NCBI GenBank assembly: GCA_001717025.1
Contig: MAGU01000068.1
Location: forward strand, 307-64,306
Direction: 5' to 3'
Source: Candidatus Methanomethylicus oleisabuli
GTDB lineage: Archaea > Thermoproteota > Methanomethylicia > Methanomethylicales > Methanomethylicaceae
DNA: 64,000 bases
Of this stretch, positions 25,235-61,300 are shown in pieces (within the stretch, counting starts at the first letter, position 1; each line of letters opens with the position of its first letter). Under the pieces are notes generated by a model that had not been told where the DNA came from, did not search any database, and was given only the letters and a program-made list of their open reading frames with translations. The position numbers were made by a program, and so were the translations under genes.

Positions 25235-25295
25235 CACTCCTTTATTTTTTAATGCACCTTCTTGTATTTGTAAGCAATGTTTTAATATTTCCGCT
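25235..25295 (+). promoter_or_regulatory. Putative mcr promoter region (TATA-like TTTATTTTTTAA and TTTTAATATTT)
   Basis: AT-rich boxes 40-100 nt upstream of mcrB. The mcrB RBS GAGAGGAG sits 7 nt before the ATG. Confidence 0.35.
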
Positions 25296-25335
25296 AGGTT
25301 ATTTAGACCGCAACAAAACTCTAGAGAGGAGTCCT

Positions 25336-26670: not shown

Positions 26671-26671
26671 A

Positions 26672-27448: not shown

Positions 27449-27462
27449 GGAGGTAGCATGAA

Positions 27463-33625: not shown

Positions 33626-33709
33626 ACGCACACCGCAGAACACTTTATCTTGAAAATCGTGATATATAAACAAACTGAATTGCTGTTGTTGGGGGGCAAT
33701 AAAGACGCA

Positions 33710-34399: not shown

Positions 34400-34408
34400 T
34401 CACCTTAG

Positions 34409-43342: not shown

Positions 43343-44707
43343 GTGACTGTCTTTGGCACCAATGCCGTAAGGATCGACCTGCCGGTCGATGACATTCCGA
43401 AATACTGGTATAATATTCTGCCTGATCTGCCTGAACCGTGCCCCCCGCCGCTGGATCCGAAAACCAGGGCTCCAGCAGGGCCAGAGTCTCTCAGCAAGAT
43501 CTTCTCAAAGAGCTTGCTGGCTCAGGAGATGTCGACTGAGCGGTTCATAAAGATTCCTGAAGAGATCAGGTCAGTGTATGTCAACCTATCCAGGCCCACG
43601 CCGATATTTCGGGCAAGGCGCCTGGAGAAGTATCTTAAGACCCCTGCTGAGATATACTTCAAGTATGAGGGTATCTCGCCTCTTGGGAGCCATAAAGGAA
43701 ATACTGCTGTTGCCCAGGCCTACTACAACATGATCGATGGCACACAGCGCCTTGTAACAGAAACGGGCGCCGGGCAGTGGGGAACCGCCCTCGCCCTCTC
43801 TTGCAGCCTCTTCGATATGAAGTGCAGGGTCTTCATGACGCGAGCCTCACATGATCAGAAGCCTTACAGGCGCCTGTTAATGGAGATGTATGGTGCAGAG
43901 GTCTTCGCGTCGCCAAGTAATGTAACCGAATTCGGGCGAAAGACCCTGAATGAGCGCCCTGATCATCCTGGCAGCCTTGGCGTTGCAATAAGCGAGGCTA
44001 TCGAGGTCGTTCTGGAAGACCCCCTCTCTAAGTACTGCTTGGGGTCTGTGCTGAACCATGTTCTGCTTCATCAGACCGTTATTGGGCAGGAGGCAAAGAT
44101 GCAGATGGACCTTATCGACCGCAAGCCTGATTTCGTTATAGCCTGCGTCGGCGGTGGTAGTAACTTTGGAGGCATAGCCTATCCGTTCATTCAGGATAAG
44201 CTAAAGGGTGCCTCGGAGGCCGAGTTCATAGCGGTTGAACCTACCGCCGTCCCCTCGTTAACCAAGGGGGTATATACATACGACTTCGGAGATACTGCCG
44301 GTCTGACTCCTCTGTTGCCCATGTATACGGTTGGTCACGAATTCGTGTCCCCTCCCATACACGCCGGAGGTCTCAGATACCATGGAAAGGCGCCATCGCT
44401 GAGCTCGCTAGTCAAGAGCAAGGTCGTGAAGCCGGCAGCTCTAAACCAGTGCGAGGTATTCGAGGCAGGAAAGGTCTTCTGCAGGCTAGAAGGTGTATTG
44501 CCCGCTCCGGAGAGCGCCCATGCCCTATGCATGGCAATGAATGTTGCTGAAGAGTGCCGAAAGAAGAATGAGAAGAAGGTCATACTCTTCAACATGAGCG
44601 GGCACGGCCTGCTTGACCTAGGCGGTTACGGCGAGTACCTTGCAGGAAAGCTGAACGACTGCCCTCCAGGCAAGATAGACTTCAATGGAGTATTGAAGTG
44701 CGCATAA
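43343..44707 (+). CDS. trpB: Tryptophan synthase beta-like PLP enzyme, TrpB2 type
   Basis: N-terminal [15 protein letters not shown] extension typical of TrpB2. PLP-lysine region [11 protein letters not shown] start. Confidence 0.8.
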
Positions 44708-44785
44708 TGCGCACCTTTTTTTAAACCTTTAAAAGGCAGTTGCACCTTATTAATCCCCGATACTTTGCTTTCGGAGGTGAACAAT

Positions 44786-45094
44786 GTGGCTGAAGAAGTA
44801 AAAGCTCCTATAAACACTGCAATGCCTAGGGACGTTATCCTGGTCGGCAAGAAACCAATTATGAGCTATGCGACAGCTGCACTTATGCAGCTTAAGGAGA
44901 GCAACGCCATCACCATCAAGGCCAGGGGTATGTCTATCTCTTCTGCAGTCGACGTTGCTGAAGTGCTGACTAAGAAACTAATGAGAGACGAGGCATTCGT
45001 TGAATCAGTAACGATCGGTACAGTAAAGCTAGGCGAACCAGAAAGGAACGTTTCTACAATCGAGATCAAAGTGGCAAACAAGGCAAAGAAGTGA
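44786..45094 (+). CDS. albA: Chromatin protein Alba
   Basis: VILVGKKPIMSYATAAL...ITIKARGMSISSAVDVAEVL. GTG start 6 nt after GGAGGTGA. A TTG at 44765 is an alternative. Confidence 0.8.
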   Translation: MAEEVKAPINTAMPRDVILVGKKPIMSYATAALMQLKESNAITIKARGMSISSAVDVAEVLTKKLMRDEAFVESVTIGTVKLGEPERNVSTIEIKVANKAKK

Positions 45095-45173: not shown

Positions 45174-45677
45174 TCAACTCAACGAGACCTTCGTGACTGT
45201 AGGCACCTTCAAGAGCTCGGAAACCACGTTCCCTGGCACTTGCCTATCTGTAATTATGAGCAACTTTGGGTCTGGGTTCACATCCGGGTCTTCCGCGAGT
45301 ATCTGCCTGATGCCCACGTTAGCATTTGCTATTATCTCCGTCGCTTTCGAGATCACCCCTACCGCATCAGGTCGCGCCCTGATTTCGACTACGCCAAAGC
45401 CGAACATCGGCGCAACATCCTTCAGGAAGCTTCCAGCCGGCTTAAGACCCGTGAATATCTTCTTCATCTTGGGATCATGAAGGATGTCTTCTACAGTCTC
45501 CCTGACGACCCTTCTGTCCACCTTGGCAGCTCTAGCTATGCTGGAATCTGTTATCTCGACCTCGCCGCAAGCTATCTTAGTATCCTCATTTATCCTAAAT
45601 CCTAATTCTACCATCAGCCTTGCGACCTTGAGCTTTGCGGGGGCGCATCCAAAGAAAGCCGTGATCTCCTTCCACAT
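45174..45677 (-). CDS. Predicted regulator of amino-acid metabolism with ACT domain (COG2150-like)
   Basis: About 167 aa from MWKEITAFFG. ACT-like C-terminal domain. Confidence 0.55.
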   Translation of the reverse strand: MWKEITAFFGCAPAKLKVARLMVELGFRINEDTKIACGEVEITDSSIARAAKVDRRVVRETVEDILHDPKMKKIFTGLKPAGSFLKDVAPMFGFGVVEIRARPDAVGVISKATEIIANANVGIRQILAEDPDVNPDPKLLIITDRQVPGNVVSELLKVPTVTKVSLS

Positions 45678-45788
45678 GTATCCCACTATGTATGTTTTTG
45701 TTCGTGAATGGCTATATATGACTATTGGATGCACCACTCGTATTTTCCCATCATCATGCACTTTGGAGGCATCGTAACGAAGTCGATC

Positions 45789-46343
45789 CTAATCGAAACC
45801 AACAAGTATGGTGCCTAGCTTCGGGTCTTTCGTATCGAGCCCCATCCTCTTCTTTATGTAGCTGTCTACGGGGGGCGATGGGCTTCCGACTACCGCATAA
45901 GGCCCTAGCCTATCTGGCATCTCTAGCGGCAATATCTGAACCCGCATCTCATCCCGCTCCTCCTTCATTTTTCCCATCTTGTCCTTATAGAAGACTATCT
46001 CCCCGACAACTATGTCGCCCCTCTGTTTGCACTCTTCTATCTTTGCAGGGTCTATGACCTCCTCTCCAATCAGCTCAGATCCACAGGTCAACTTTATCAA
46101 TGAGCAACGCGGCCACTGCATAGTTCCATCTGTTAGTCCGCCTACCAAGTTCTTCCTCTTTAGCGCCTCCCGCACGCCGACATTGATGCCTTTGCATAAC
46201 CCCATCAGGACGCTATTCTCCGCCTCACTCTCGAGCCTCTCAATCTCCGCGCGGTCCTTATCATTCAACTCAATTGTCCGTATGATTCCTTGCATCGTGG
46301 AGAGCTCTTTCAGGACATCGATTTTGTAGTTATCTGCTGACAT
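45789..46343 (-). CDS. Hypothetical protein, last gene of the Mmp/A2/RACo operon
   Basis: 14-nt overlap with the upstream RACo-like gene. 184 aa with no recognised domain. Confidence 0.4.
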   Translation of the reverse strand: MSADNYKIDVLKELSTMQGIIRTIELNDKDRAEIERLESEAENSVLMGLCKGINVGVREALKRKNLVGGLTDGTMQWPRCSLIKLTCGSELIGEEVIDPAKIEECKQRGDIVVGEIVFYKDKMGKMKEERDEMRVQILPLEMPDRLGPYAVVGSPSPPVDSYIKKRMGLDTKDPKLGTILVGFD

Positions 46344-48222
46344 ATACTCTGACCACCTTGGGCGCCTTTATCGACCCTGCCGTTTCAGGGAACATATTTA
46401 GCCTGCTATTGGGCATATACATCGCATTGATGTACTCCTCAGTAAATATCGGCTCGGCCGCCAACTCAATGTACTTCATCCTATCTGCGACCTCTATAGC
46501 CTCGCGTCTAAGATCGAGCGACTTCAAGCATATCCGTGCGCCGGACCCTGCTGTATTCCCCGTAAATGATATCCTATCCAGTGGAACTTCAGGTATCATA
46601 CCGAGCACTCTAGCGCTGGCAGGGTCTATATAATTCCCAAACGCGCCGGCGATGATTATCTCATTCAATTCTGCCGTTGTATGTCCGCTCTTCCTCATAA
46701 GCGTCATATACCCGCCAAACATTGCTGCCTTAGCCTTTTGGATCTCCCTTACGTCATCCTGGGATACGACGATGTCCTCCTTTCCAGACGCTGTCTCCTC
46801 CTTCGGCACAAGCACAAACTCCTTTCCCATCGGCGTGACCCTGACTCCCTTGTGCCCTTCCACTAGTTTCCCGGACGTGTCTAGTGCTCCGCACTTGAGC
46901 ATCTCCGCTATGGCATCAATTATCCCTGAGCCGCAGATACCCCTTGCCTTTTCATCGTCTATGGTCTTGTATATTACCTCATCTTCTATGATTCTTACCT
47001 TCTCAACCGCCCCGTTCGCAGCACGCATGCCATTCTTTATATGCGCCCCCTCAAAGGCAGGCCCTGAAGCTGTCGAGCATGACCATATGCCTTCCCTGCC
47101 TCCAAGCATGACCTCCGTGTTCGTTCCGACATCCATCAGCAATGTCAGCTTCTCCTTCTCATGCAGCCTACATGCGAGGGCGTCCGCTATCGCATCCGCC
47201 CCGACGAACCCCGCAACGTTAGGGAGCACATGGACGTTTCCTGATGCGTTGATTGATATTCCAAGGTCCCTAGCCTTGATGTCATACGCCCTGCCCAATC
47301 CTGCCGGGTATGGCGCCAGTCCTAGGCTCTTAGTGTTGACCCCCACAAAGAGGTGGTGCATAGCCGTATTGCCAACCGCGACCATTTCGTATAGCTCCCG
47401 CCTTTCAATGCCTGTTTCTGTGAGCCCTTTCTCTATGAGCTCATTTATGCCATCGACTATTGCCTTCTGCACCTCGCCGAGCTCTCTTTCACCTTGGGCG
47501 GCGTAGTTGATGCGCGATATGACGTCCTCGCCGAACCTTATCTGGGGATTCATCATACCATCTGCGAATGCTATCCCGCCATCCATGAGGTCAACAATGA
47601 AGACCGCGAGTTTCGTAGTTCCGATATCAACCGCAACGCCAAAGGACCTCTTTCTAGTATCGCCCTCCTCGACCCCTATGACCTCTTTCCCTCCGAGGAT
47701 CACTGCCGTGACCTTCCAGTCGGCCCTTCTCAATATCGTCGCAATCTTCGTGGCAATTCTGTAGTCAAGCCTGACATCCAAGACCCCTTTTGAGCCAAGT
47801 GAAGAGTACAGTCTGATGTCATCCGCAACAGTATCGTGGAGCGTGGGCGGCGCGAGCTCAAGGTAAACCTTCTCCACGTTGCTCCTGATCTTGACGGGTG
47901 GCTCCTTACCCATTATCACTAGCCGTTGCCTGCCAACTCTGCTCTGGTCTGGAACCCTTATTGTAACGTTTCCCTTGACCTTAGCTAAGCAAGCAAATCT
48001 GTAGCCCTTCTCGGCCTTCTCCTTTGGGATCCTCTTCAGTTCAACATCTGTGATGGGAGAGACTTCCCCCTCTATGACCTCGACAAGACATTTGCCACAT
48101 AGCGACTTGCCGCCGCATATTGAAGCTATATCGACCTCGCCTTTGACTGCAGCACTCATGAGTGTCGTTCCTTCAGGCACCAAAACCCTCTTGCCCTCTG
48201 GCAAAAATTTCACTTCAAACAT
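46330..48222 (-). CDS. RACo-like ATP-dependent reductive activase: N-terminal plant-type [2Fe-2S] ferredoxin domain + C-terminal ASKHA ATPase (COG3894/DUF4445)
   Basis: CGGKSLCGKC...C ferredoxin motif. Long ASKHA domain (VDIGTTK, DVGTNTE, GICGSG). Start MFEVKFLPEG, 8-nt overlap with the upstream A2 paralog. Confidence 0.7.
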   Translation of the reverse strand: MFEVKFLPEGKRVLVPEGTTLMSAAVKGEVDIASICGGKSLCGKCLVEVIEGEVSPITDVELKRIPKEKAEKGYRFACLAKVKGNVTIRVPDQSRVGRQRLVIMGKEPPVKIRSNVEKVYLELAPPTLHDTVADDIRLYSSLGSKGVLDVRLDYRIATKIATILRRADWKVTAVILGGKEVIGVEEGDTRKRSFGVAVDIGTTKLAVFIVDLMDGGIAFADGMMNPQIRFGEDVISRINYAAQGERELGEVQKAIVDGINELIEKGLTETGIERRELYEMVAVGNTAMHHLFVGVNTKSLGLAPYPAGLGRAYDIKARDLGISINASGNVHVLPNVAGFVGADAIADALACRLHEKEKLTLLMDVGTNTEVMLGGREGIWSCSTASGPAFEGAHIKNGMRAANGAVEKVRIIEDEVIYKTIDDEKARGICGSGIIDAIAEMLKCGALDTSGKLVEGHKGVRVTPMGKEFVLVPKEETASGKEDIVVSQDDVREIQKAKAAMFGGYMTLMRKSGHTTAELNEIIIAGAFGNYIDPASARVLGMIPEVPLDRISFTGNTAGSGARICLKSLDLRREAIEVADRMKYIELAAEPIFTEEYINAMYMPNSRLNMFPETAGSIKAPKVVRVYVSR

Positions 48223-49891
48223 TGTCACATGTCTCCATGAATCTACCAACAACTTCTTTCGGCTGCCCATCCGATATTACTTTCCCATTTTTTATCAAAA
48301 TACATCGATCCGAGACCTCCTCGACGAAATCAAGCTGGTGGCTCACAAGCACTATTGCTGGCTTTAGCGTCTGCTTTATGCGTTTTAATGAGTTTGATAC
48401 TATCCTGAGCGTCCGTGGGTCCAGATCCCCGAATGGCTCATCGAGTATAATGATACGTGGCTTTGCAATTACGGCCAATGCAAGTGCTACCCTTACCTTC
48501 TCTCCTCCTGAGAGTTCGTACACATGTCTATCGAGAATCTCGCTGCCAAGACCCATCAGCCCCAAGGCTGAAAGCGCAACCTCCTTCGCTATCTCGGGGT
48601 CCTTGCTTCTGAAGAGCGATTTAAGGACCTCTCGATCTATTCCTATCTCCCTCAACTTTGCTTGGACCTCTGCATCAGGCATATCTGCGACCCTGTGGAG
48701 GGCATCGACTGTTTCATCACTGATTCCGGCCTTCTTTGCCCTTTTGAGCGCATCCTCTACCATTTTATAATCTTTGATTCCTACCTTCGCCGCGAAGAGC
48801 TCCAAGACTCTTGACCAGTATGAGAGGTCAAACTCTTGGTGAAGTATGCCAATCTGCCTCCTTGCGTGCATGCTGCTCCTCCCTAGTTTCTGTAGTTTGA
48901 CCCACTCGTCCTTGTAAATGACATTGACCTCGCCCGAGTCGGGCATCTCAAGACCTGCCAACATCCTCAATAAAACCGTCTTTCCAGCGCCAGAAGGACC
49001 GATGATGCCTGTTATCTCTCCTCGCCTGAACTCGAGGTTCGTATTATACAGCTCAAATACCTTGCCATATGGTACGAGTTTGTAGACTCTTGTAACATCC
49101 TTAAACGCCATTGCTACAGGCCCCTTCAGAACCGATTTTGGCAATGGCGGCTCCATCTTTGAGAGATATCTATTCAAAACGCCCTCTACGTCGCCGCTGT
49201 CCGCAATCCTGCCCCCCTCAATCAGGATCATCCTCTTGGCAAGAGCTCTGTGAAAATTTGGGTTATGGGAGGCAAATATTATCGCCATGTCGAGCTCCTT
49301 GTTTGCCCTCCTGAGTGCATCTATCAGGTCAATCCTAGTCTCTGGGCAGGTCATAGTGCCAGGCTCGTCCAACAGAAGCAACTTCGGTCTCCTTGCAATC
49401 TGCCTCGCTACTATCAGCCTCTGCTTCTCCCCGCCGCTCAGAACCTCCGACCACAAATCTGCCCTGCTGTCCAATCGCACTATCCTGAGTAGCTCCATCG
49501 CCTCCTCCCTGTGCTCCTCATATTCACCCTCGTCCTGAGGCATTGACTCCTCTCCCATTTCGACATACCTCATAGCCCTGATCACGTTATCCACTGCCGA
49601 GTCAGGCCATAGCCCAAAGTTCCTCTGTAGCTGTATTGCTGTCTTTTCTTGGAGCTGGATGTAGGTGCTCTTGGGCGAATCCGGTCTTACTTCAACGTCC
49701 CCAATCTTTATCGAACCACTATCAAAAGGCTCGACCCCCCTCAATATTCGCAACAAGCTGCTCTTTCCGGCGCCGCTGCCTCCCATGATTCCCAACATCT
49801 CTCCCTCGCCCAAGGAGAATGAGACGTCGTTCAAAGCCGTTATTTTGCCGTCAAGGTATGTCTTCTTTAGCCCGTTAACCTCAAGTAACAT
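48215..49891 (-). CDS. Second MCR component A2-like double-NBD ABC ATPase (paralog)
   Basis: Walker A GGSGAGKS / GPSGAGKT, signatures LSGGEKQR / LSGGEKVR. No TMD. Embedded in the Mmp cluster. Confidence 0.65.
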   Translation of the reverse strand: MLLEVNGLKKTYLDGKITALNDVSFSLGEGEMLGIMGGSGAGKSSLLRILRGVEPFDSGSIKIGDVEVRPDSPKSTYIQLQEKTAIQLQRNFGLWPDSAVDNVIRAMRYVEMGEESMPQDEGEYEEHREEAMELLRIVRLDSRADLWSEVLSGGEKQRLIVARQIARRPKLLLLDEPGTMTCPETRIDLIDALRRANKELDMAIIFASHNPNFHRALAKRMILIEGGRIADSGDVEGVLNRYLSKMEPPLPKSVLKGPVAMAFKDVTRVYKLVPYGKVFELYNTNLEFRRGEITGIIGPSGAGKTVLLRMLAGLEMPDSGEVNVIYKDEWVKLQKLGRSSMHARRQIGILHQEFDLSYWSRVLELFAAKVGIKDYKMVEDALKRAKKAGISDETVDALHRVADMPDAEVQAKLREIGIDREVLKSLFRSKDPEIAKEVALSALGLMGLGSEILDRHVYELSGGEKVRVALALAVIAKPRIIILDEPFGDLDPRTLRIVSNSLKRIKQTLKPAIVLVSHQLDFVEEVSDRCILIKNGKVISDGQPKEVVGRFMETCDNV

Positions 49892-49900
49892 TTTTAGACC

Positions 49901-50809
49901 TCACTGGAACATCGATGCGGGAAGAACCTTCACTAATATGTAGTCCCTCATCTGTGATCTCTTAATCATCGCGAACCCTCCTAGGCGCTTGCCATTAATC
50001 ACAATATTGCTTACTCTGTCCTTGTACTCATCATAGTTGAGCTTGATCCTGACGCCATCTATTTTTAACGTGACCGGGTTCGGCGAGAGTGCCTCCTTTG
50101 CCTCGGGGATCTGCCTCTCCACCTCGTCCTTGACGACCGTCGGCTCCAATACAAGCGGGTCTAGATCAAGCTCCCTGCGCCTCTCCTCTACGACCTTCCC
50201 GGCCATCTCAGAGACCGACTTGAGCTTGTTTATCATGTCCCCCGTCCTAGCGCGTTCCGGATACCTTCCGATCCCGCCGACATATCCATGCGCCCCCTCT
50301 ATGCTTCCAATCTCAGGTCCTCCAGTCACTATGACCGGGATGGCTAAGTCCTTGTAGAGCTGGGGTTTATACTTGACTAAGCAATGCTCAAAATTGCCTA
50401 GCGTGAAGACTGCAATGTCGTGCTCTTCTATCAGTTCCCTCTCCTTAGGGGAGCTGTGCACTATCTTCTGCCCCACCCCCCTAGAGAGCCCAATGATGTT
50501 TGTCTTTGCCCCGTGCCTCCTTAGGTTCTCCGCAACATCACATGCTGGATGGGGCAGATGGTGCCTCGACAGGGTCGGCGCGACAACTGCAACCTCGACT
50601 CCAATAAGTGGCGCCGGCGTGATCTTCCCCCTAACCTCGGCCGCCAACTTATTTAACTTTTCCAGCTCCTCCTCAGGAACTGCGAGATTCATTATGAGGT
50701 CAAGCCCAGCAACATTCTTCTGGACTACGAACCCGCCGACATCCTCAATGAATTCCGTGATCATCTCGTGCCTGTAGAGGCCGCCCTCGAAGAGGAGATA
50801 CTTCAGCAT
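49901..50809 (-). CDS. Candidate methanogenesis marker protein 7
   Basis: About 302 aa. Position between the Mmp17-like and A2 genes, as in canonical Mcr-associated clusters. Assignment by size and context only. Confidence 0.45.
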   Translation of the reverse strand: MLKYLLFEGGLYRHEMITEFIEDVGGFVVQKNVAGLDLIMNLAVPEEELEKLNKLAAEVRGKITPAPLIGVEVAVVAPTLSRHHLPHPACDVAENLRRHGAKTNIIGLSRGVGQKIVHSSPKERELIEEHDIAVFTLGNFEHCLVKYKPQLYKDLAIPVIVTGGPEIGSIEGAHGYVGGIGRYPERARTGDMINKLKSVSEMAGKVVEERRRELDLDPLVLEPTVVKDEVERQIPEAKEALSPNPVTLKIDGVRIKLNYDEYKDRVSNIVINGKRLGGFAMIKRSQMRDYILVKVLPASMFQ

Positions 50810-50810
50810 A

Positions 50811-51359
50811 TCACAGCCTCCATGCCGCCTCTGCTTGCCTCTTCCACTCTTCCTTTATGGGATCCTCTGCAGCAACTATTGTGATCTCGCCATCTTTCTT
50901 TATGACATGACGCACGCGGAACCCTTCGGGTATTATGCGCAATGCTAGCTCATTCACCTTTGATCCAACGTCGATTGGCTTATCGCGTATCTTTAGCCTC
51001 TTTACATCCTCTGCCTCAACACCATCGACCCTTATCTCCAACCTGCTGCCCTGCTCAACCCTGTCTCTCCCGTATGTTGTCCATAGCGTCTTGAGTGCGT
51101 CCCCAACGTCAACCTCGCTGTAGAGGGTTATCTTCACCCCGTCCATGCGCGACTCTATGCTCCCTAGATCTGCTATACTGTTCTTACCTGCGAACTCTTT
51201 GTACCTTATGCTTATTATGAAAAATGGTTCTTCTGGTCTTATGCACATCCAAATGCCTTCGACAGTGCCTGTAAGTCCCAAGTCCTCAACGGTCTTCTCT
51301 GCGATGTACTTGTACTGCTCCCCTCCGGTTCTATCAGTGGAATCGACGGTTGTCTGCAT
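50811..51359 (-). CDS. Candidate methanogenesis marker protein 17
   Basis: 182 aa, by size and context. Confidence 0.35.
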   Translation of the reverse strand: MQTTVDSTDRTGGEQYKYIAEKTVEDLGLTGTVEGIWMCIRPEEPFFIISIRYKEFAGKNSIADLGSIESRMDGVKITLYSEVDVGDALKTLWTTYGRDRVEQGSRLEIRVDGVEAEDVKRLKIRDKPIDVGSKVNELALRIIPEGFRVRHVIKKDGEITIVAAEDPIKEEWKRQAEAAWRL

Positions 51360-51773
51360 TCAGCTCTCACCGCCCTCCATGATCTTCTTAAGCTTGTCGA
51401 CCTCGATCTTGCGCTTCCCCTCATCCTCTTTCCCCTCAATCGCTGGGCTTTCCAGCGCCTTCGATACATTCTTCAAGACCTCCCTCTCCATAGAAAGCAT
51501 GTGATAGCCTGGCCTTGGTCCACCGCCCCTCTTAGCACGGCAGATGCGATTGTCGCCAATCTTGTAGCCCCTCTGCTTGTAAAATACCCTATTCGGATCT
51601 ATGGCCTTGAGCTCATTTATTGTTGCCATCACCTTCTCCTCCTCGCCCTCAAGAAGGAGTCCATAGCAAGTCTCTTTGTAGTCCACGTCCCCTCTACTTG
51701 CTACCTTCTCCGCGAGCATCGACGGCGTCAGGTTGGAATCTGAAGAGAGCACCACAAGGTAAGTCTTTATCAT
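51360..51773 (-). CDS. Candidate methanogenesis marker protein 6
   Basis: 137 aa, by size and context. ATGA overlap with the upstream gene. Confidence 0.35.
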   Translation of the reverse strand: MIKTYLVVLSSDSNLTPSMLAEKVASRGDVDYKETCYGLLLEGEEEKVMATINELKAIDPNRVFYKQRGYKIGDNRICRAKRGGGPRPGYHMLSMEREVLKNVSKALESPAIEGKEDEGKRKIEVDKLKKIMEGGES

Positions 51774-53332
51774 CGTTGCCCCTCCATTATGTATATCTCC
51801 TCGCCCTCCTTGAGCCCCCTCAAAGGCTCCATATTGCTGACGACCTCGCCGATAATGTTCGTTCCATCGAATGCCTCAGCAGTAGGTCCGAATCTGTCGC
51901 TCTCTGTGAATCTAATCCCAATCATTCCCGTGAACTTCTTAACGCTGTTGGTAACGCCTATCTGACCCCCTTTGACCAACGAGGTTGGTATGTTCTCGGG
52001 CATTAGCCCCTTGGCTAGAGACTCGTTGCCCTTGAATAATATCAGATCCATCTTAGGGGCAGAGAAGTATGTCTCGAGTTTCCCAAACCGCCGGAGTTCG
52101 AGGCCGGTGACTACCCTGAAGTACCTTGCAGATACCGGGGCATCCTCATTGTAGAGGCGGATCTTTACGATCTTATCCTGCCCTACGCCGATCGTCTTGA
52201 CCGCCTTCTTAGCAACGATCTCCAATGAGTTGCTAGGCAAATGCTCTACAACAATTGCAGAATCTGATTTGTCGCCCAGCCTCTCGACACTTATTCCCTG
52301 CTTTGCTAGAAACGCCTCAGCCTCGGCCTGCGTCTTTCCAAGAATGTCAATGCGCTCTTGGGAGGCTGAGACCGCGATCCTGTCCCCCTCCTCAGAGACA
52401 TCCGCAAGTTCCATCCCGCTTATTATTTGCCCCGCTATCGAATGGCTTGCGCTTAAAGGCGCCTCTGCCGTATATACGTATATCGCGCCTGCATTGCTGC
52501 CCGTGTTTCTAACGGTTAGTGTACCGCGGTGCCTCTCGCCCAGACCTTCGGCTGCCAGTGAAGCTAGTCCAACCCTGTTGTCAGATATGAACCTGCTTGT
52601 TTTGGATCTGACCTCCATCCATCCCTTTCCAAACACGTTATAAACATGTTCACTCGATGCCGGCGAGGCGCCGTCCAACTCTATGGTCATCTTGGTGATT
52701 AAGCTGTCTCCTTCTTCAAGCACATAATCGCCGTCGATCTTAATGACTGATTTGGAAGCCTCCTTCATTTCTATGACCGGTTCGATCTTGATTATTCTGT
52801 CGCCCATCTTCATGCTCTCTACGAGGTGCCTTCCATAAACCACTCTGCCTATAACGCCGCAGCCCTTTGGGGGGGAGTAGTTGCCTATATGCGTCTTCTT
52901 ACCGAAGACTATATGCGTGTTCTCGCTACTGAATCCAGATAGGCTTAATGCCACTTCGTTCTTCTTCATCTCAAACTGCTCATTTGAAGGTTCAAAATCA
53001 GTTGAGATCTGACCGAATACGGTCGCATCTCTGGTAGACCATCTTACGCTCGTTCCTTCAAACGATCTGAAATGCCTCCTCCACCCGTCGAGCACTCCCT
53101 GGCAATCTATCTTTATTATGAGCCTGCCCTTTGTAGTCTCTATGCTGAATAGGTCTGTAACCACCCTCTCAATGGCGACCTTCTTCCTCAAGGCAAGGAT
53201 GCACCCCCTGTCAGATTCACAAATCTTCTTCAATACTTGATTGACGGTAGTTCCGGTCGCAATATCGATGGTCTGCCCGTTTATACTTGCCTTCAATGGA
53301 TGCCATCCCAACCTGTAGTGTAGTTTATCCAA
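51770..53332 (-). CDS. Candidate methanogenesis marker protein 3
   Basis: 520 aa. First gene of the operon, divergent from mcrDC. Confidence 0.45.
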   Translation of the reverse strand: MDKLHYRLGWHPLKASINGQTIDIATGTTVNQVLKKICESDRGCILALRKKVAIERVVTDLFSIETTKGRLIIKIDCQGVLDGWRRHFRSFEGTSVRWSTRDATVFGQISTDFEPSNEQFEMKKNEVALSLSGFSSENTHIVFGKKTHIGNYSPPKGCGVIGRVVYGRHLVESMKMGDRIIKIEPVIEMKEASKSVIKIDGDYVLEEGDSLITKMTIELDGASPASSEHVYNVFGKGWMEVRSKTSRFISDNRVGLASLAAEGLGERHRGTLTVRNTGSNAGAIYVYTAEAPLSASHSIAGQIISGMELADVSEEGDRIAVSASQERIDILGKTQAEAEAFLAKQGISVERLGDKSDSAIVVEHLPSNSLEIVAKKAVKTIGVGQDKIVKIRLYNEDAPVSARYFRVVTGLELRRFGKLETYFSAPKMDLILFKGNESLAKGLMPENIPTSLVKGGQIGVTNSVKKFTGMIGIRFTESDRFGPTAEAFDGTNIIGEVVSNMEPLRGLKEGEEIYIMEGQR

Positions 53333-53417
53333 GGGAACAATAAAAACTGCTCGTTCGCGCGGTATGAAGCCAATCTTTTTATTTATCCGCTTGGGCTATT
53401 TAGCTAAGGTGCCTGCA

Positions 53418-53747
53418 TTGTCCGATTCTTCTGAGATATGTGAAATAGAGGTCATGCCTAGGCGATTAATGAGCACCGAGAAAGGCGAATCTCTGGTTTC
53501 AGCGCTCAATGGAGATGATAGGGTCGTAGAGGTCCTTATTCATGGTCCAAAATATCGTGATGGCAAACAAATTATAGGGCGTTTCATAATCAGGCTTGTG
53601 CCAGGTACTGCGCCGGAAGTTATTCTATCCTCCTTCAAGCCTACATTCGAGTCCACAATGCCCTTCGGGTACGATGTCAGGATAGGGCGATTTACAAAGC
53701 CAAAGCCGACTGTAAAGGATTACCTGTCAGGCAGAGTTAGCAGGTGA
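53418..53747 (+). CDS. mcrD: Methyl-coenzyme M reductase operon protein D
   Basis: TTG start giving MSDSSEICEIEVMPRRLMSTEKG... C-terminal FGYDVRIGRFTKPKPTVKDY resembles the McrD C-terminus. ATGA overlap with mcrC. Confidence 0.55.
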   Translation: MSDSSEICEIEVMPRRLMSTEKGESLVSALNGDDRVVEVLIHGPKYRDGKQIIGRFIIRLVPGTAPEVILSSFKPTFESTMPFGYDVRIGRFTKPKPTVKDYLSGRVSR

Positions 53748-54436
53748 TGCGGTTGAAGGAGTCGATAGGGCGGGAGGCGCAGATCGTAGATTGCAGAGAA
53801 TCGATGGGCATTGGGGAGGGCGGCGGGCTGGCACAGAGGGGAACGATATCTGAATCAGAGGCGTTCGAGGTGGTAGCCGTAGCAATGTCCCCCTCCAAAA
53901 GGCACATCACCAAGCCCGTGTGTGAGATCACTTACGGATTAAGGGAACAAGGGATCCGGACGAGCGTTCTCGTGCTTGAGTCTGGCTCCGGCGTGCCGCC
54001 AGAATCCCCGTACGGCGGCGCTCCTGGTGGATCCATGGCGGGGATCAACGAAAAAGAGATATTGCAGGTGCGGCGCTTCAAGATAGCCCTCTTCCATCTG
54101 GGCGGCATCACGGGTCACGTCGTGCACAAGGCAAAGTCTTTCTTACGTTATGCCGACATCCCTACCATCATAGTCTGTGAGGCACCAGTGGACTATGAAG
54201 ATTTTGCCAAGGTAGGCATAGTCACGCGGCTAGTAAGGCCACCGCCTGGAAAGGTGGAGGTCGCAGGAGTCATAGTGGACCTGATCACCGGCGTTGTGAG
54301 GGGAGTTAGTTGCCCTCGCGACAAGCTAAATGAGATAGTTATAAAAGTGAAGTATTGGTTGAGCAAGGCGAGTAGTGGCGAAATCACCTTAGGGGGCGGA
54401 TCGTTTGGCAAAGATCTTCATATTCCCGCCGAATAG
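53744..54436 (+). CDS. mcrC: Methyl-coenzyme M reductase operon protein C
   Basis: VDCRESMGIGEGGG, RHITKPVCEITYGLRE, VCEAPVDYEDFAKVG and GVSCPRDKLNEIV motifs match the McrC family. Confidence 0.75.
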   Translation: MMRLKESIGREAQIVDCRESMGIGEGGGLAQRGTISESEAFEVVAVAMSPSKRHITKPVCEITYGLREQGIRTSVLVLESGSGVPPESPYGGAPGGSMAGINEKEILQVRRFKIALFHLGGITGHVVHKAKSFLRYADIPTIIVCEAPVDYEDFAKVGIVTRLVRPPPGKVEVAGVIVDLITGVVRGVSCPRDKLNEIVIKVKYWLSKASSGEITLGGGSFGKDLHIPAE

Positions 54437-54869
54437 CCTCATACTTTACGATCTGGTTGTTCGAGAAGGCCACACCCCTCTGGGTCTTGGCGAAGAGGTT
54501 TCCAAGAATTTGGGCAAGCCTGAGATCGACTCGCCTCCTATGAACATAACCCCCGATTTCCCGAGAAGGGGGCTCAAATACGCTGCAATCGAAGTGCCCG
54601 CCGGCGTCAGAGGGCGCCTGGCATTGATGGGCCCTCTGATCGAGGATGCCGATGGCGCAATCATCGTGGACGAGTCCGAGGCACTGTTTGGATGCGCAAG
54701 TTGCGCACGAACAAACGAATTTCTGCTCTATCTGATCAAAAGGAGGGGCATTCCAAGCATTCATGTTCCATATCCTAAGGATGAAGCAGACGCCAAAATA
54801 ATGGTATACAAAATCAAGTCTTTCCTGAAGAATATGGGTGAAAAAGATGGTAAGCCTAACAATAGCTGA
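54405..54869 (+). CDS. Hypothetical 154-aa protein co-operonic with mcrDC (possible methanogenesis marker, e.g. Mmp5-sized)
   Basis: 32-nt overlap with the mcrC 3' end. CASCAR motif. Confidence 0.4.
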   Translation: MAKIFIFPPNSLILYDLVVREGHTPLGLGEEVSKNLGKPEIDSPPMNITPDFPRRGLKYAAIEVPAGVRGRLALMGPLIEDADGAIIVDESEALFGCASCARTNEFLLYLIKRRGIPSIHVPYPKDEADAKIMVYKIKSFLKNMGEKDGKPNNS

Positions 54870-55353
54870 TGATAAACTGCCTGCTTTCTGCAGCTCAATA
54901 ATGGATGAGGCGCTACGCGAGATCATACTGTTGCTGAGCGATGGGCCACTCAACGCCGAAAAGATTGCCGAGATTATGGGCATAACTCAGCAGGACTCTG
55001 AAGGCAGGCTCGAGAGGCTCTATTCGGCAGGGCTGGTCAGAAAGACCCGAGTGCCGGAGGGCGTTCTACTCTTCTCTTTGGACTTTTCAATGGAGCGGCT
55101 GGGTAGCCCTTATGACAAAAAGATCGCGGAGCCGCTTGCGTCAGACCTTTCCAAGACCATTCAATCTTTTCTAGAGTCACACGCCTCCGAGGTATCGTCC
55201 TCATGCAGCAATATCGGCATGTCCCTAGGGCGAGCGGTTGAGCAGCTCTTCCTCACCTCATTCTCGTCGATAATGGGGCGTCTACAAGCCGAGATCGTTG
55301 AGGAGGACAAGGGGCTCAGTAAAGCCCTCGCTGAAGAGGAACAAAAACAATGA
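54838..55353 (+). CDS. Winged-HTH (ArsR-like) transcriptional regulator
   Basis: HTH EKIAEIMGITQQDSEGRLERLYSAGLV. Confidence 0.5.
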   Translation: MKKMVSLTIADDKLPAFCSSIMDEALREIILLLSDGPLNAEKIAEIMGITQQDSEGRLERLYSAGLVRKTRVPEGVLLFSLDFSMERLGSPYDKKIAEPLASDLSKTIQSFLESHASEVSSSCSNIGMSLGRAVEQLFLTSFSSIMGRLQAEIVEEDKGLSKALAEEEQKQ

Positions 55354-58409: not shown

Positions 58410-59657
58410 CTATGTCAGCAGTTCTCGATAGAGTGCCAGGTGGTCCTGGACTCCCCTCTCTGTTGAAAAGTTAGTCTGATATATCTTCTTGCCGTTATCT
58501 CCCATCTCTCGCGCCCTTCCAAAATTAGTTAGGACGTAATCTATGGCCTCTGCCAGCGCCGTAGCGTCATTCGGCTTGACGATGTAGCCGTTGACGCCTG
58601 GCCAAATCTGCGTGGGTATTCCTCCCACAGCGCTTCCGATTACGGGCCTCCCAAAAGCCATCCCCTCAGTTATAGCCAGACCGAAACCCTCTTGGTGCGA
58701 TGGAAGGACAACCAGATCGCATTCCTTGTATGCGCTCATTAGCGAATCCCTGTCGATTGCTCCTGTGAACAGTACCTTGTCCTTAAGGTTGTATTCATCG
58801 ACCTTCTCCTTCAGCTCCTTCTCGTAATCTTCCTTCTCCTTGATCTTCAGGAACTCCTTCGTTACTGAACCATTTCCTATGAAGATGATCTTGCAGTCTG
58901 ATTTCATCCTCGAGGCGGCATCAAGCAATACGCTCTGCCCTTTCAGCTTATCAATCCTGGCCACGCACAGTATAATCTTGGCGTTTTTGGATATGCCGTA
59001 GCTTTTTCTGAACGACCGCTTCGGCTCCTCCACATCAATGAAGGGCGGTATGCAGCAGGGTTTTTTCCAAACAAGGCCCGATTTTAATGCCGCATTTATG
59101 TACGGCTTCGTTGAAAATACTACCTTTGAATACTCGTTCAGCTCCTTTACTATCTGCTCTCTCCAACTCTGGTGTACCTCCTCCGTAAATGGTATGTGCC
59201 AAGTGAAGGGCATAGGCAATCCGAGCCTCTTTAGGATCCCTCCGAGGGGCAGGAGCTGGAAGTCATGGACATGGATGATGTCTGGCTTCGAGATGTCCGC
59301 CACCTCTCTTATCCTTTCAGCAAATATCTCGTTGACCTTGATGTATCCCTCATACCCATAGAGGTGTTTGTTATACAGCTTGTCTAGAGCGGACTCTTTC
59401 CCATGGAATATCTTCAGAATCAACTCCTTATAAGTCGAGTACCCAGCCATCGTAGCGCCGTCAATGGAGCCATCTTTAGGTACTCGATAAACACTCATCC
59501 CCTCGATAGCGGTGTCCGAACTCCCCTTTGGGGTCTTTAAATTTATGAACACTACCGTGTGGCCTAGCTGCCTCAACCTGCGGCCTAGCCAGAAGAGGTA
59601 ATATGAAACTCCGCCCGTGCTGGGATAAAACGATTGACTTACATAGAGGATCTTCAA
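58410..59657 (-). CDS. GT4-family glycosyltransferase (sugar-phosphate synthase-like)
   Basis: GT-B fold with EGFGLAITEGMAFGRPVIGS motif. 415 aa. Confidence 0.75.
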   Translation of the reverse strand: MKILYVSQSFYPSTGGVSYYLFWLGRRLRQLGHTVVFINLKTPKGSSDTAIEGMSVYRVPKDGSIDGATMAGYSTYKELILKIFHGKESALDKLYNKHLYGYEGYIKVNEIFAERIREVADISKPDIIHVHDFQLLPLGGILKRLGLPMPFTWHIPFTEEVHQSWREQIVKELNEYSKVVFSTKPYINAALKSGLVWKKPCCIPPFIDVEEPKRSFRKSYGISKNAKIILCVARIDKLKGQSVLLDAASRMKSDCKIIFIGNGSVTKEFLKIKEKEDYEKELKEKVDEYNLKDKVLFTGAIDRDSLMSAYKECDLVVLPSHQEGFGLAITEGMAFGRPVIGSAVGGIPTQIWPGVNGYIVKPNDATALAEAIDYVLTNFGRAREMGDNGKKIYQTNFSTERGVQDHLALYRELLT

Positions 59658-61300
59658 ATCAGCCCACCATTCATTATTATCGAAAGCTGAACCTTGTTGA
59701 TCGCCCCTTGGTTTCTCAGAACAGTGATTCCATTTTTGAGCCTGTCCCTATTCTTTGCATTTAGTATGTCGAACAGTTCTCTGGAATCAAATAGAATCAC
59801 TGCGATGTTGTCCCAATTCCCTTCGAGGTAGCTCACCACTTTTTCTGACACTTTGATTTTTTCATACGGCTCCTCCTTTCCATTCTCCTTAATTATTATT
59901 GGAGGCTCGATGATGCTCATGTTCTGATCCTTGGAGACGAGGTAGAACGGCACGTAGATGACCTCGAGGTCTCTCTGGACGGTGTCCGCTTTCATGAATA
60001 TATCCTTATATTTGTCCAGCTCCTCCTCCGCCTTCTTATGGACGTCCTCAAGTAGTTCCTTCTGCCTTACGTAAGCCATCCTCTTCTCATTCATCTTAGT
60101 TTTTATCTTGAGTAGAGCCCGCTCCTTTTTCGATATTAGGTCATCGAGCTCTTTGATCACGAACTCCCTCCTCTTAAGGAAACACTCCTCGATCTTCTTC
60201 CGTTCAAGGTCCTCGTTAGATGGCAGTAGCTTCTCCTTCTCCATTATTTTGTTAAGGTCTGCCTCAAGCAACCTTAATTTTTTGTTGATCTTCGATTGCT
60301 TCTCCTTCAGTTCTGCTATCTCCTCCGTGAGGGCGAAGATTCGATTTGTCAGCCTCTCTTTCTCCTTCTTCATCGCCTCTTTTTCTAAAACGACGTCCTT
60401 GATCTCAAGAAGCTTTACCGTATCGTTCTCAATCTTCTCCTTCTTCAAACTCAATGCCGAGATATTGTCCTCTAGCCTTGTTATCTCGTTCTTGGCATGC
60501 TCCCTCTCCTCATAAGCCTTATTGATGGTCTTCTCTATCTCTGCTGCATTCGACCTTGTGTCTTTGAGAGTCCGTTCAATGAAGTCGCACTCATTTTTGA
60601 GGCTGTCCATCTTCTTCTCCAATTCTGTTCTGAACTCCTTGATGACCGACCTCTCAACATTATCAACGAGGTTCTCAATCTCTTGGTTCTTCTGCGCAAT
60701 CTTCTCCTCATACTCTTTCTGTAGTTGCTCGTATTCACTGGTAAGGGGGTCCATGTCTTCCTTATACTTCCTCTCCATCTCATCTATCGTCTTTCTGATG
60801 CCCAATGCCGAATTTTTCGTCTTCAGGTAAATGCTGTACAACCCGTCTGCCACGTTCTTGGTCTTGCTCTCATCCAGCGCAGGCCACAGCGCCAACCCAT
60901 CATTTATCTCTATATCGTAAGCGGCAGCGTTCCACTCAGATAGGCTTATGCCTTTGCCGTTCTCAATGAGTGGCAGCTCATAGGTCTTTAGTGTGTAAAG
61001 CTGGTAGTCCTCGCTTCCACCTAAATATTCGCTTACCCTGCAACTATGCAGCGCCATACCATCTACCGCTACTGCCGCATCCCCCTCTTTTATAAGATAT
61101 ATCGGATAATACATTTTATAAACGAAGTCAATTTTACTTTTATCCTCTTGAAACAGCCTGAAGATGCTCCTCCACTTCTTGCCCATTACATTGAATACTT
61201 TTAGAAGGACCAGCGCATCCCCAGCTTCAGGTGGCAACGCTTTCTTTGTTCCATCCTTTCTTTGGACAAATGCGAAATTAATCACGCGCATCTCTCTCAA
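59654..61300 (-). CDS. Large coiled-coil protein (N-terminal globular domain, E/K-rich coil of about 280 aa, C-terminal globular domain)
   Basis: 548 aa. AT-rich codon usage distinct from the flanking genes. 4-nt overlap with the GT4 gene. No NTPase motifs. Confidence 0.55.
   Translation of the reverse strand: MREMRVINFAFVQRKDGTKKALPPEAGDALVLLKVFNVMGKKWRSIFRLFQEDKSKIDFVYKMYYPIYLIKEGDAAVAVDGMALHSCRVSEYLGGSEDYQLYTLKTYELPLIENGKGISLSEWNAAAYDIEINDGLALWPALDESKTKNVADGLYSIYLKTKNSALGIRKTIDEMERKYKEDMDPLTSEYEQLQKEYEEKIAQKNQEIENLVDNVERSVIKEFRTELEKKMDSLKNECDFIERTLKDTRSNAAEIEKTINKAYEEREHAKNEITRLEDNISALSLKKEKIENDTVKLLEIKDVVLEKEAMKKEKERLTNRIFALTEEIAELKEKQSKINKKLRLLEADLNKIMEKEKLLPSNEDLERKKIEECFLKRREFVIKELDDLISKKERALLKIKTKMNEKRMAYVRQKELLEDVHKKAEEELDKYKDIFMKADTVQRDLEVIYVPFYLVSKDQNMSIIEPPIIIKENGKEEPYEKIKVSEKVVSYLEGNWDNIAVILFDSRELFDILNAKNRDRLKNGITVLRNQGAINKVQLSIIMNGGLI

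Follow-up and report, generated by a model that had tools for sequence, protein, structure and literature searches.

The activation of MCR has been assigned to a complex of McrC, Mmp3, Mmp7, Mmp17 and component A2 (PMC12176620; bioRxiv 2026.03.18.712670). Which donor supplies the electrons in the cell and which additional proteins assist is still open, and the process has been likened to ATP-driven corrinoid reduction (PMC12176620). The M. acetivorans operon comprises Mmp5, 6, 17, 7, 3, 15 and A2, and nifB comes after the M. marburgensis cluster. A2 homologs lacking the zinc-binding motif (ZBM; MA_3967 type) have been used only as an outgroup (bioRxiv 2026.03.18.712670). In Culexarchaeia, the MCR-lacking sister class of the Methanomethylicia, RamA-like COG3894 genes adjoin mttB/mttC or CODH genes (bioRxiv 2022.04.06.487207).

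Methylotrophic methanogenesis reportedly needs a corrinoid activase, as exemplified by RamA. The DNA analysed here, a stretch of 64 kb referred to as the window, stems from a Methanomethylicus-like archaeon of the class Methanomethylicia, whose members are H2-dependent methyl-reducing methanogens and, according to the literature, are devoid of the Wood-Ljungdahl pathway. Cultured relatives grow only by reduction of methanol or monomethylamine with H2 (PMC12244365), and metagenome-assembled genomes encode mtaA, mtmB, mtbC and mttC (PMC10033731); organisms with this growth mode and these methyltransferase genes therefore require a corrinoid activase.

Organisation of the operon and its surroundings

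A minus-strand operon (45789-53332) encodes Mmp3, Mmp6, Mmp17, Mmp7, an A2 homolog, a RACo-type activase and a small protein named here u184, with all open reading frames where the first-pass annotation had placed them. Mmp3 (methanogenesis marker 3; 51770-53332), the first gene, which is kept in all related loci, scored 501.5 bits with TIGR03268 (cut-off 234) and overlaps by 4 nt with Mmp6 (DUF2102; 51360-51773; PF09875, 5.8e-33; TIGR03272, 132 bits, cut-off 126). The junction of Mmp6 with Mmp17 (DUF2113; 50811-51359; PF09886, 9.8e-42; TIGR03291, 117 bits, cut-off 67) measures 0 nt, and that of Mmp17 with the McrC-like Mmp7 (49901-50809; PF04609, 1.6e-108; TIGR03274, 395.6 bits, cut-off 349) 1 nt. 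Each of the four proposed Mmp assignments was thus confirmed above its TIGR cut-off. Mmp7 and the A2 homolog are separated by a 9-nt gap, while the A2 homolog and the activase overlap by 8 nt, in agreement with the proposed translational coupling, and the activase and u184 by 14 nt. In view of these junctions, the earlier description of overlaps of 1-14 nt is approximately right.

The 48215-49891 product is a double-NBD ABC ATPase that scored 315.5 bits with the A2 profile TIGR03269, below the cut-off of 517. Canonical component A2 (AtwA; 32003-33673, minus strand; 733.8 bits with the same profile) lies elsewhere in the window as the final gene of an Mmp15-YcaO-TfuA-A2 string (32003-36883), in which TfuA, YcaO/Mmp1 and Mmp15 all exceed their cut-offs. 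The operon protein is 29% identical to this A2, has no CxxC...CxxC motif, shows an NBD2 enlarged by an insertion of about 55 aa and matches the family of A2 homologs lacking the ZBM (bioRxiv 2026.03.18.712670). Judged by these features it is a component-A2 paralog, in agreement with the first-pass annotation. Nezhaarchaeota and Methanobacterium possess relatives of 44-51% identity, which are linked to MCR and not to corrinoid genes: in Nezhaarchaeota they adjoin mcrD/mcrAGB, and the same kind of linkage was found in non-methylotrophic Methanobacterium. At another locus, L063, the A2 homolog is located immediately upstream of mcrBDC.

Divergently from Mmp3, the plus strand carries an McrD-like gene (53364-53747; TIGR03260, weak at 39.7 bits), whose L001/L003 orthologs contain PF02505 (MCR_D), followed by McrC (53744-54436; TIGR03264, 284.6 bits, cut-off 213.5) and Mmp5 (DUF2112; 54405-54869; PF09885, 9.8e-58). 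Also on the plus strand, mcrB-mcrG-mcrA (25252-29133) scored far above the cut-offs of TIGR03257, TIGR03259 and TIGR03256. A TrpY-family regulator (45174-45761, minus strand; NF053754, 190 bits, cut-off 180) lies downstream of u184. The same order was found in most loci, among them L005 with its lack of Mmp genes, but the regulator probably does not belong to the functional unit. Neither a corrinoid protein, nor a methyltransferase, nor a second COG3894 gene was found within the 64 kb.

The RACo-type activase and u184

The 630-aa product of 46330-48222 is a genuine ATP-dependent reductive activase of the RACo type (COG3894). The ferredoxin-ASKHA architecture proposed for it was borne out by the profile search, which gave four Pfam RACo domains in the order N-terminal [2Fe-2S] ferredoxin (Fer2), RACo_linker, Raco_middle and C-terminal ASKHA ATPase (RACo_C_ter), and the match with RACo (PDB 3ZYY) is collinear over the full length (residues 2-613, E = 6.5e-111). 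Alignment recovered all four ferredoxin cysteines (Cys36/42/45/78), which are invariant in 122 aligned homologs, as are the ASKHA motifs DxGTT(199), DxGTN(364) and AGAFG(525). Since the ATG at 48222 overlaps the stop of the A2 homolog by 8 nt (ATGTTTGA) and homologs begin at the same position, the annotated start is correct. With 485.6 bits for AcsV (NF040756, cut-off 800) and 139 bits for RamA (TIGR04270, cut-off 500), the protein remains below the cut-offs of both characterised subfamilies. Its 184-aa partner u184 (45789-46343), a small conserved companion of RACo-type activases, has no family match in Pfam or NCBIfam, consistent with its first description as an unknown, and shows a weak nitroreductase-like fold. 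Coupled translationally, the two genes would act as one module.

Conservation of the linkage and corrinoid contexts elsewhere

The operon gene order is kept in 19 of 19 species-level Methanomethylicia genomes retrieved, in metagenome contigs and in one deeper relative (L066). It is still found in a lineage with only 56% identity. Where both genes are present, the A2 homolog and the activase overlap by 8 or 11 nt in 26 of 29 loci, and this length, like the 14 nt between activase and u184, is retained at protein identities of about 63-89%. The linkage of the RACo-type gene to the MCR-activation operon is therefore real and conserved in Methanomethylicia; the possibility that it is a chance arrangement of one contig, raised with the original proposal, does not hold against this class-wide synteny. 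Translational coupling of the activase to the A2 homolog was seen only in Methanomethylicia, not at the Nezhaarchaeota and Methanobacterium loci compared.

Outside the main clade, the nearest relatives of the module that include u184 have a corrinoid/methyltransferase context. In L006/L064, RACo-u184-MtmB occurs with PylS/B/C/D, an MtbA-like gene and MtmC, and MtaA-u184-RACo in L060/L061 lies near a RamA-type gene and MtaC-MtaB-MtaA. L063 contains mtaA-mtaC-mtaA, u184, RACo and MtaC-MtaB, L068 contains MtmC-MtmB-RACo, and in L067 the activase gene adjoins an mtaA-like gene; the RACo-type genes of L063 and L067 lie in islands where mta genes, mcr genes and the A2 homolog occur together. Homologs from Alkanophaga and proteobacteria are encoded directly 3' of a gene for a B12-binding protein. 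The activase of the Mmp operon in L066 and the mtmB-adjacent one in L006 are 81% identical with 0 gaps, and their u184 partners 66%. In L005/L058, no Mmp or A2-like genes lie upstream of RACo-u184, which is followed by TrpY-...-TIM-NAD synthase in the same synteny as in the window. The alignment revealed no diagnostic substitutions, clade-specific insertions or rate acceleration in the Mmp-linked clade; clade-specific deletions occur in three alignment columns. This clade is as distant from the outgroups as the other groups are (38.5% vs 39.0/38.9%).

Functional interpretation

We consider it most probable (roughly 60%) that the MCR-activation operon has captured a module for the reductive activation of corrinoid proteins. 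By analogy with the family, the [2Fe-2S] domain would take an electron from a cellular donor, and the ASKHA domain would bind the oxidised Co(II) corrinoid protein and use ATP to permit the uphill reduction to Co(I). The most likely clients would be MtaC/MtmC-type corrinoid proteins, which feed methyl groups to coenzyme M. In the ancestor of the Methanomethylicia, RACo and u184 would have come to form the permanent 3' end of the Mmp3-Mmp6-Mmp17-Mmp7-A2-homolog operon, so that the repair systems for two oxygen-sensitive, super-reduced tetrapyrrole metals, Co(I) for methyl transfer and Ni(I)-F430 for methyl reduction, would be produced together; co-expression may thus be the reason for the linkage. 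However, the only direct genomic link in the window is to MCR-activation genes, the overlap with the MCR-linked A2 homolog is conserved, and the activase falls into neither characterised subfamily by score. Genes that overlap in this way often encode functional partners.

The first-pass annotation had gone further and seen the protein as a strong candidate for an ATP-driven electron injector for MCR and not for a corrinoid protein. Its [2Fe-2S] cluster would then pass electrons to the Fe-S (L-type) clusters of McrC/Mmp7/Mmp3/Mmp17 or work with the A2 homolog, in keeping with the conserved position and 8/11-nt overlap in all 19 species and L066, the open question of the MCR donor, the published corrinoid analogy and the lack of corrinoid genes in the window. 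This exclusive role is very unlikely, as the nearest outside relatives with u184 sit in methylamine/methanol methyltransferase clusters, the gap-free ortholog adjoins mtmB/pyl/mtmC, L005/L058 keep the module without Mmp genes, and no residue signature or insertion separates the Mmp-linked clade. F430 is buried and reached via the L-cluster chain, whereas the target of RACo is a B12-binding domain in the Co(II) state (4C1N, the RACo:CoFeSP complex). A RACo-like subunit is also missing from the M. maripaludis activation complex, the canonical operons and the Nezhaarchaeota island. Moreover, the hosts are obligate methyl-reducing methanogens, and if the operon copy is their sole COG3894 gene, they would be left without a corrinoid activase; if they hold another, RamA-type activase beside mta/mtm genes, the operon copy would be free for a different task.

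The operon linkage and the corrinoid-associated orthologs would both be accommodated if RACo and u184 were a general low-potential, ATP-coupled reductant for corrinoid proteins and for the MCR activation complex or A2 homolog, with the operon fusion reflecting shared use, as the mixed islands L063 and L067 might suggest. We regard this dual use as quite improbable, since direct evidence for a non-corrinoid client is lacking for any COG3894 protein, other MCR-encoding lineages do without such a link and co-regulation is the simpler explanation. Taken together, an action on MCR, exclusive or shared, is possible but unlikely, and the evidence favours an ordinary B12-protein function. The module might also simply have come to lie beside the Mmp operon, the genome being small and compact, with overlaps that are a by-product of streamlining and carry no functional or regulatory meaning. 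Genes in the window stand close together, and short overlaps between them are frequent; the downstream block (TrpY-like, TIM, NAD synthase, ThiN) is syntenic across the class without an obvious functional tie; yet the exact overlap lengths (8/11, 14 nt), the gene order persisting in the divergent lineage and the clear functional grouping of methanogenesis genes in the region make such hitch-hiking highly doubtful.

Comparison with known systems

With the MCR activation system the operon shares Mmp3/6/17/7, the divergent McrD/McrC/Mmp5 genes and a canonical A2 encoded elsewhere in the window. It differs in carrying in place of A2 a ZBM-less homolog, which resembles the MA_3967 type in its two NBDs, the lack of CxxC...CxxC and about 30% identity to canonical A2, and in ending with the activase and u184. 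The latter two are absent from the described activation complex and, as the first-pass annotation had supposed for canonical Mmp clusters, no such gene occurs in the M. acetivorans operon or the M. marburgensis cluster. The Nezhaarchaeota island L043 has no RACo either. The RACo of Carboxydothermus hydrogenoformans (3ZYY) has the four-domain architecture, Fe-S cysteines and nucleotide motifs in common with the window activase. Unlike RACo/AcsV, no CODH/ACS or CoFeSP genes lie nearby, and opposite RACo Ser398 the alignment as read shows Ala, followed by Ser at the next position; nearly all members of the subfamily have this AS, inside and outside the Mmp-linked clade. RamA-type proteins, such as the 557-aa example in L060 (about 25-30% identical to the window activase), lack an N-terminal Fer2 and carry a 2x[4Fe-4S] domain at the C-terminus. 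RamA of Methanosarcina (TIGR04270) shares the COG3894 middle and ASKHA core, and the physiological need is the same: in methylotrophic methanogenesis, methyltransferase corrinoid proteins must be brought back from Co(II) to Co(I) with the help of ATP. Orthologs of the window activase adjoin mtmB/mtmC and mtaBC. On the reading preferred here, the RACo-type activase would be the functional counterpart of RamA.

Domain architecture of the RACo-type protein

The 630-aa RACo-type protein (46330-48222, minus strand) had been described in the first-pass annotation as a fusion of a ferredoxin and an ASKHA ATPase in the manner of RACo/COG3894, and the Pfam search bore this out by returning all four RACo domains. 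The N-terminal plant-type [2Fe-2S] ferredoxin domain (Fer2, PF00111, 1.5e-10) is followed by the linker (RACo_linker, PF17650, 1.1e-18), the middle domain (Raco_middle, PF17651, 9.3e-53) and the C-terminal ASKHA ATPase (RACo_C_ter, PF14574, 9.5e-88). The ferredoxin cysteines are really there: Cys36, 42, 45 and 78 all align with the cysteines of RACo and are invariant in an alignment of 122 sequences, as are the ASKHA phosphate-1, phosphate-2 and adenosine motifs DIGTT(199), DVGTN(364) and AGAFG(525). The protein is collinear with crystallised RACo (3ZYY_X, E = 6.5e-111, query 2-613 versus chain 4-629) and also aligns over its full length with RACo as it occurs in complex with CoFeSP (4C1N). 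The best homologs assign the window to the class Methanomethylicia; they include a metagenomic protein with 99% identity and the copy of Ca. Methanomethylicus mesodigestus V1 with 89%. The start was placed at the ATG at 48222, which gives an 8-nt overlap with the stop of the A2 homolog; an upstream start at 48270 (646 aa) was dropped, since the alignments with the homologs and with RACo begin at 48222.

Operon content and genomic neighbourhood

The RACo-type gene is part of a minus-strand string (45789-53332) with seven products, in a window whose GC content is even throughout at about 50%. Mmp3 (51770-53332), Mmp6 (51360-51773), Mmp17 (50811-51359) and Mmp7 (49901-50809) passed the cut-offs of their TIGRFAM equivalogs, with 501.5 bits against 234, 132.2 against 126, 117.4 against 67 and 395.6 against 349, respectively. 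They are followed by a 558-aa double-NBD ABC ATPase (48215-49891), termed here the A2 homolog, which reached 315.5 bits with TIGR03269 and remained below the cut-off of 517, by the RACo-type gene and by u184 (45789-46343), a 184-aa protein that has no match in Pfam and NCBIfam. A McrD-like gene, McrC, Mmp5 and an HTH regulator diverge from Mmp3 (53364-55353, plus strand), and the intergenic stretch before mmp3 is only about 30 nt long if Mmp3 starts with the TTG at 53332. A 199-aa ORF on the opposite strand (54384-54983, minus) is probably no gene, as it has no family match and Mmp5 (PF09885, 9.8e-58) overlaps it on the plus strand.

The canonical A2 of the window (32003-33673, minus strand, 733.8 bits) lies behind Mmp15, YcaO and TfuA. 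This Mmp15-YcaO(Mmp1)-TfuA-A2 string (32003-36883, minus strand), with canonical A2 in last position, is convergent with a Mmp2-like AIR-synthase-related gene (31100-32035, plus strand), so that canonical A2 is grouped in the window with the genes for thioglycine modification of McrA and not with Mmp3/6/7/17, a distribution that differs from that in M. acetivorans. The mcr operon (25252-29133, plus strand) consists of mcrB-mcrG-mcrA only, with the McrD-like gene and mcrC 24 kb away. Behind u184, a TrpY-family regulator (45174-45761, minus strand) is present in most related loci, including L005, a locus without Mmp genes. It is convergent, past two plus-strand ORFs, one of them Alba-like (44765-45094), with the gene of a TrpB-like PALP enzyme (43343-44707, plus strand), which may be its target rather than the Mmp operon. 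Two further ORFs have no Pfam match: a 751-aa product (282-2537, plus strand) looks by eye secreted or surface-exposed, with a membrane anchor at its C-terminus, and a 548-aa product (59654-61300, minus strand) shows by eye many coiled-coil-like Lys/Glu repeats.

Conservation of the linkage

Scanning one genome for each GTDB species gave 19 Methanomethylicia loci, and their gene order was checked by tblastn. Within the extent of each contig, the order Mmp3-Mmp6-Mmp17-Mmp7-A2 homolog-RACo was found in 19/19 of them, and the identical operon order recurs in M. verstraetei LCB70, on a 650-kb contig and on metagenome contigs. The identity of the RACo-type protein to the window copy ranges from 63 to 89% over the Methanomethylicia and metagenome loci with conserved order. 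Among the 29 loci with both genes, 26 show an overlap of 8 or 11 nt between the stop of the A2 homolog and the start of RACo, and a 14-nt overlap joins RACo and u184 in 20 of the 23 loci that carry u184. In a deeper lineage (L066, 56% identity) the order is kept and a short gap replaces the overlap. The linkage of the RACo-type gene to the Mmp operon is thus real and not confined by chance to one contig, a possibility that had been left open.

RACo-type genes and u184 in other contexts

The small protein u184 served as a useful marker and has 206 clusters among 1.84 billion representatives. The family also follows RACo-type genes outside the Mmp context and is a conserved, uncharacterised partner family of RACo-type activases. 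In L006/L064 the pair stands in the order RACo-u184-MtmB, and its neighbours include an MtbA-like gene, PylD/C/B/S and the gene of a B12-binding protein. In L060/L061 an MtaA-like gene, u184 and a RACo-type gene (661 aa) are followed by a RamA-type activase with 2x[4Fe-4S], MtaC, MtaB and MtaA. L068 has the gene order MtmC-MtmB-RACo. Two MCR-encoding loci are also included here. In L063, which is not from Methanomethylicia, the minus-strand string mtaA-mtaC-mtaA...FMN reductase-DUF2099-A2 homolog-mcrB-mcrD-mcrC is adjoined by u184 and RACo; farther on come MtaC-MtaB, another u184 paralog and another COG3894 gene. This stretch (L063:384-20540, Ga0078972_1001766) is a compact 'methyl-reducing island' with two RACo/RamA-type activases and an Isf-like FMN reductase; judging by the sample alone, the host could at a guess be a Korarchaeia-type methanogen. 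In L067 (10001-15674) a RACo-type gene with 53% identity is followed by a convergent mtaA-like URO-D gene and then by mcrG-mcrA; a Mmp2-like AIRS gene is found upstream, and mcrB is not visible immediately upstream.

More distant homologs show comparable neighbours. In Ca. Alkanophaga and several proteobacteria the gene of a B12-binding protein lies directly upstream of the RACo homolog. The bacterial homologs of L030, L035, L038-L040 and L042 (36-38% identity), which stem from Gammaproteobacteria, Rhodospirillales and sponge-associated MAGs, share the conserved gene of a B12-binding protein, which lies a few kb upstream, a neighbourhood that fits corrinoid-dependent methyl transfer, e.g. quaternary-amine demethylation. 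A Bathyarchaeia ortholog is surrounded by housekeeping genes. In Culexarchaeia, the MCR-lacking sister class, RamA-like COG3894 genes were reported beside mtrH-mttB-mttC or CODH (bioRxiv 2022.04.06.487207). Neither the window nor any retrieved 20-kb locus of Methanomethylicia genomes contains a second COG3894 paralog.

Close relatives with and without Mmp genes

The neighbour-joining tree groups three RACo-type proteins, P0062, P0063 and P0064, as sister to the main Methanomethylicia clade. P0063 sits in the Mmp operon of L066 and P0064 beside mtmB/pyl/mtmC in L006, and both are 81% identical over 636 residues with 0 gaps, their u184 partners being 66% identical; judged by this likeness, they almost certainly share one job. 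The RACo-u184 module therefore moves between contexts or persists without Mmp genes. P0062 (L005, also L058/L059) stands in the string RACo-u184-TrpY-like-...-TIM-NAD synthase, with downstream synteny as in the window, and no Mmp, A2-like or McrC genes were found 3-8 kb upstream of it. Three alignment columns are clade-specific deletions of the Mmp-linked clade, and the alignment search gave neither an insertion specific to this clade nor a position whose fixed state sets it apart from every other homolog. Its distance to the bacterial outgroups equals that of the other groups, so there is no rate sign of neofunctionalisation.

The A2 homolog

The A2 homolog is 29% identical to the canonical A2 of the window, lacks the CxxC...CxxC zinc motif and has about 55 aa inserted in NBD2. 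Relatives with 44-51% identity occur in two settings, Nezhaarchaeota and Methanobacterium-type genomes; members of the family were located at L043:10001-11752, L044:10001-11734, L045:8089-9807 and L063:2860-4542, the last directly upstream of mcrBDC. The Nezhaarchaeota gene adjoins mcrD and mcrAGB in an island that also holds canonical A2, Mmp7, Mmp15, Mmp5, Mmp3-6-17 and McrC, and the Methanobacterium-type gene adjoins flavin reductase, Usp, rubredoxins, ferritin, peroxiredoxin and SOD. The A2 homolog seems to be tied to MCR or to stress and is not methylotroph-specific, with hints that the family helps to recover methanogenesis enzymes after oxidative stress. It gains a consistent tie to mcr/Mmp genes in three thermoproteotal lineages. 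None of the Nezhaarchaeota or Methanobacterium-type loci has a RACo-type neighbour; the tight coupling of A2 homolog and RACo-type gene is confined to Methanomethylicia, which is the main reason why the hypothesis of a role in MCR activation keeps some probability.

Putative function of the RACo-type activase

The most probable function of the RACo-type protein is an ordinary one, that of a predicted corrinoid-protein activase, which would bring Co(II) corrinoid proteins of methyltransferase systems back to the active state. In RACo and related activating enzymes, electron transfer by the [2Fe-2S] domain and ATP coupling by the ASKHA domain are established, and the protein described here would likewise carry the electron in its [2Fe-2S] domain and couple ATP to the uphill reduction in its ASKHA domain. 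For the redox shift the cited reference is PMC6739815. The hosts live solely by H2 reduction of methanol and monomethylamine (PMC12244365), and their MAGs contain mtaA, mtmB, mtbC and mttC, but neither the Wood-Ljungdahl pathway nor a complete Mtr complex (PMC10033731). These features imply that a corrinoid activase is needed and that CoFeSP is not the client of the RACo-type protein. With the module in last position, the Mmp operon would express Co(I) repair together with Ni(I) repair, for two consecutive steps of methyl-reducing methanogenesis.

The first-pass annotation had proposed instead an ATP-driven electron injector for MCR and not for a corrinoid protein. The conserved overlap of the RACo gene with the A2 homolog speaks for such an injector, as does the fact that no corrinoid protein or methyltransferase gene is located within the 64-kb window; in addition, the in-vivo reduction of MCR to Ni(I) is known only in part, above all as to the electron source and the function of the accessory ATPases (PMC12176620; bioRxiv 2026.03.18.712670), which leaves room for a candidate physiological electron donor and for extra factors of MCR activation. 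However, the 81%-identical copy beside mtmB, the lack of a sequence signature in the Mmp-linked clade and the methyltransferase contexts of orthologs disfavour a function exclusive to MCR, and the RACo-type protein is no component of the published MCR-McrC-Mmp3-Mmp7-Mmp17-A2 complex of M. maripaludis. A dual role in the reactivation of corrinoid proteins and in MCR activation is equally conceivable. Neutral hitch-hiking of the module, by comparison, is unlikely because the overlap lengths are preserved over deep divergence. For Methanomethylicia, we consider it improbable, with a chance of roughly one in five, that the RACo-type activase, produced in constant proportion to the ZBM-less A2 homolog (i.e. 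the one without zinc-binding motif) and to u184, is the physiological ATP-coupled electron donor of MCR activation, alone or alongside corrinoid reactivation.

If the electron-donor reading were true, it would provide the first non-corrinoid client of any COG3894 protein and reveal, for one archaeal class at least, how electrons enter the activation pathway that leads from Ni(II) to Ni(I). On the reading as a corrinoid activase, the likely activase of thermoproteotal methyl-reducing methanogens would be identified, Co(I) repair and Ni(I) repair would be shown to be co-organised, and u184 would be defined as an uncharacterised partner family of RACo-type activases. For researchers of MCR activation the RACo linkage is a good testable lead, since A2 homolog, RACo and u184, which form a translationally coupled string in the Mmp operon throughout the class, offer a concrete candidate, and the lineage now has isolates (Methanosuratincola petrocarbonis, PMC12244365).

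Comparison with known systems

In the literature searched, no description was found of RACo, RamA, COG3894 or DUF4445 in linkage to Mmp, McrC or A2, or in Methanomethylicia. As far as the searchable literature goes, three features are undescribed: the fixed operon fusion of RACo with MCR-activation genes, the way in which RACo is translationally coupled to the ZBM-less A2 homolog, and u184 as a conserved partner. The A2 homolog itself corresponds to the MA_3967-type family, named 'component A2 homolog lacking the zinc-binding motif', which served as outgroup in a 2026 preprint and was given no function there (bioRxiv 2026.03.18.712670). The RACo-type protein adds a new member to a known family. 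It scored 485.6 bits with AcsV (NF040756), where the cut-off of 800 is not reached and cdh/acs genes are absent from the window, and 139.1 bits with RamA (TIGR04270), where the cut-off is 500; since both cut-offs are missed, it is a RACo-type member of the COG3894 family that belongs to neither characterised equivalog. RamA carries a C-terminal 2x[4Fe-4S] domain, an architecture genuinely found in L060:8806-10479, whereas the RACo-type protein has no Fer4 and an N-terminal Fer2 instead.
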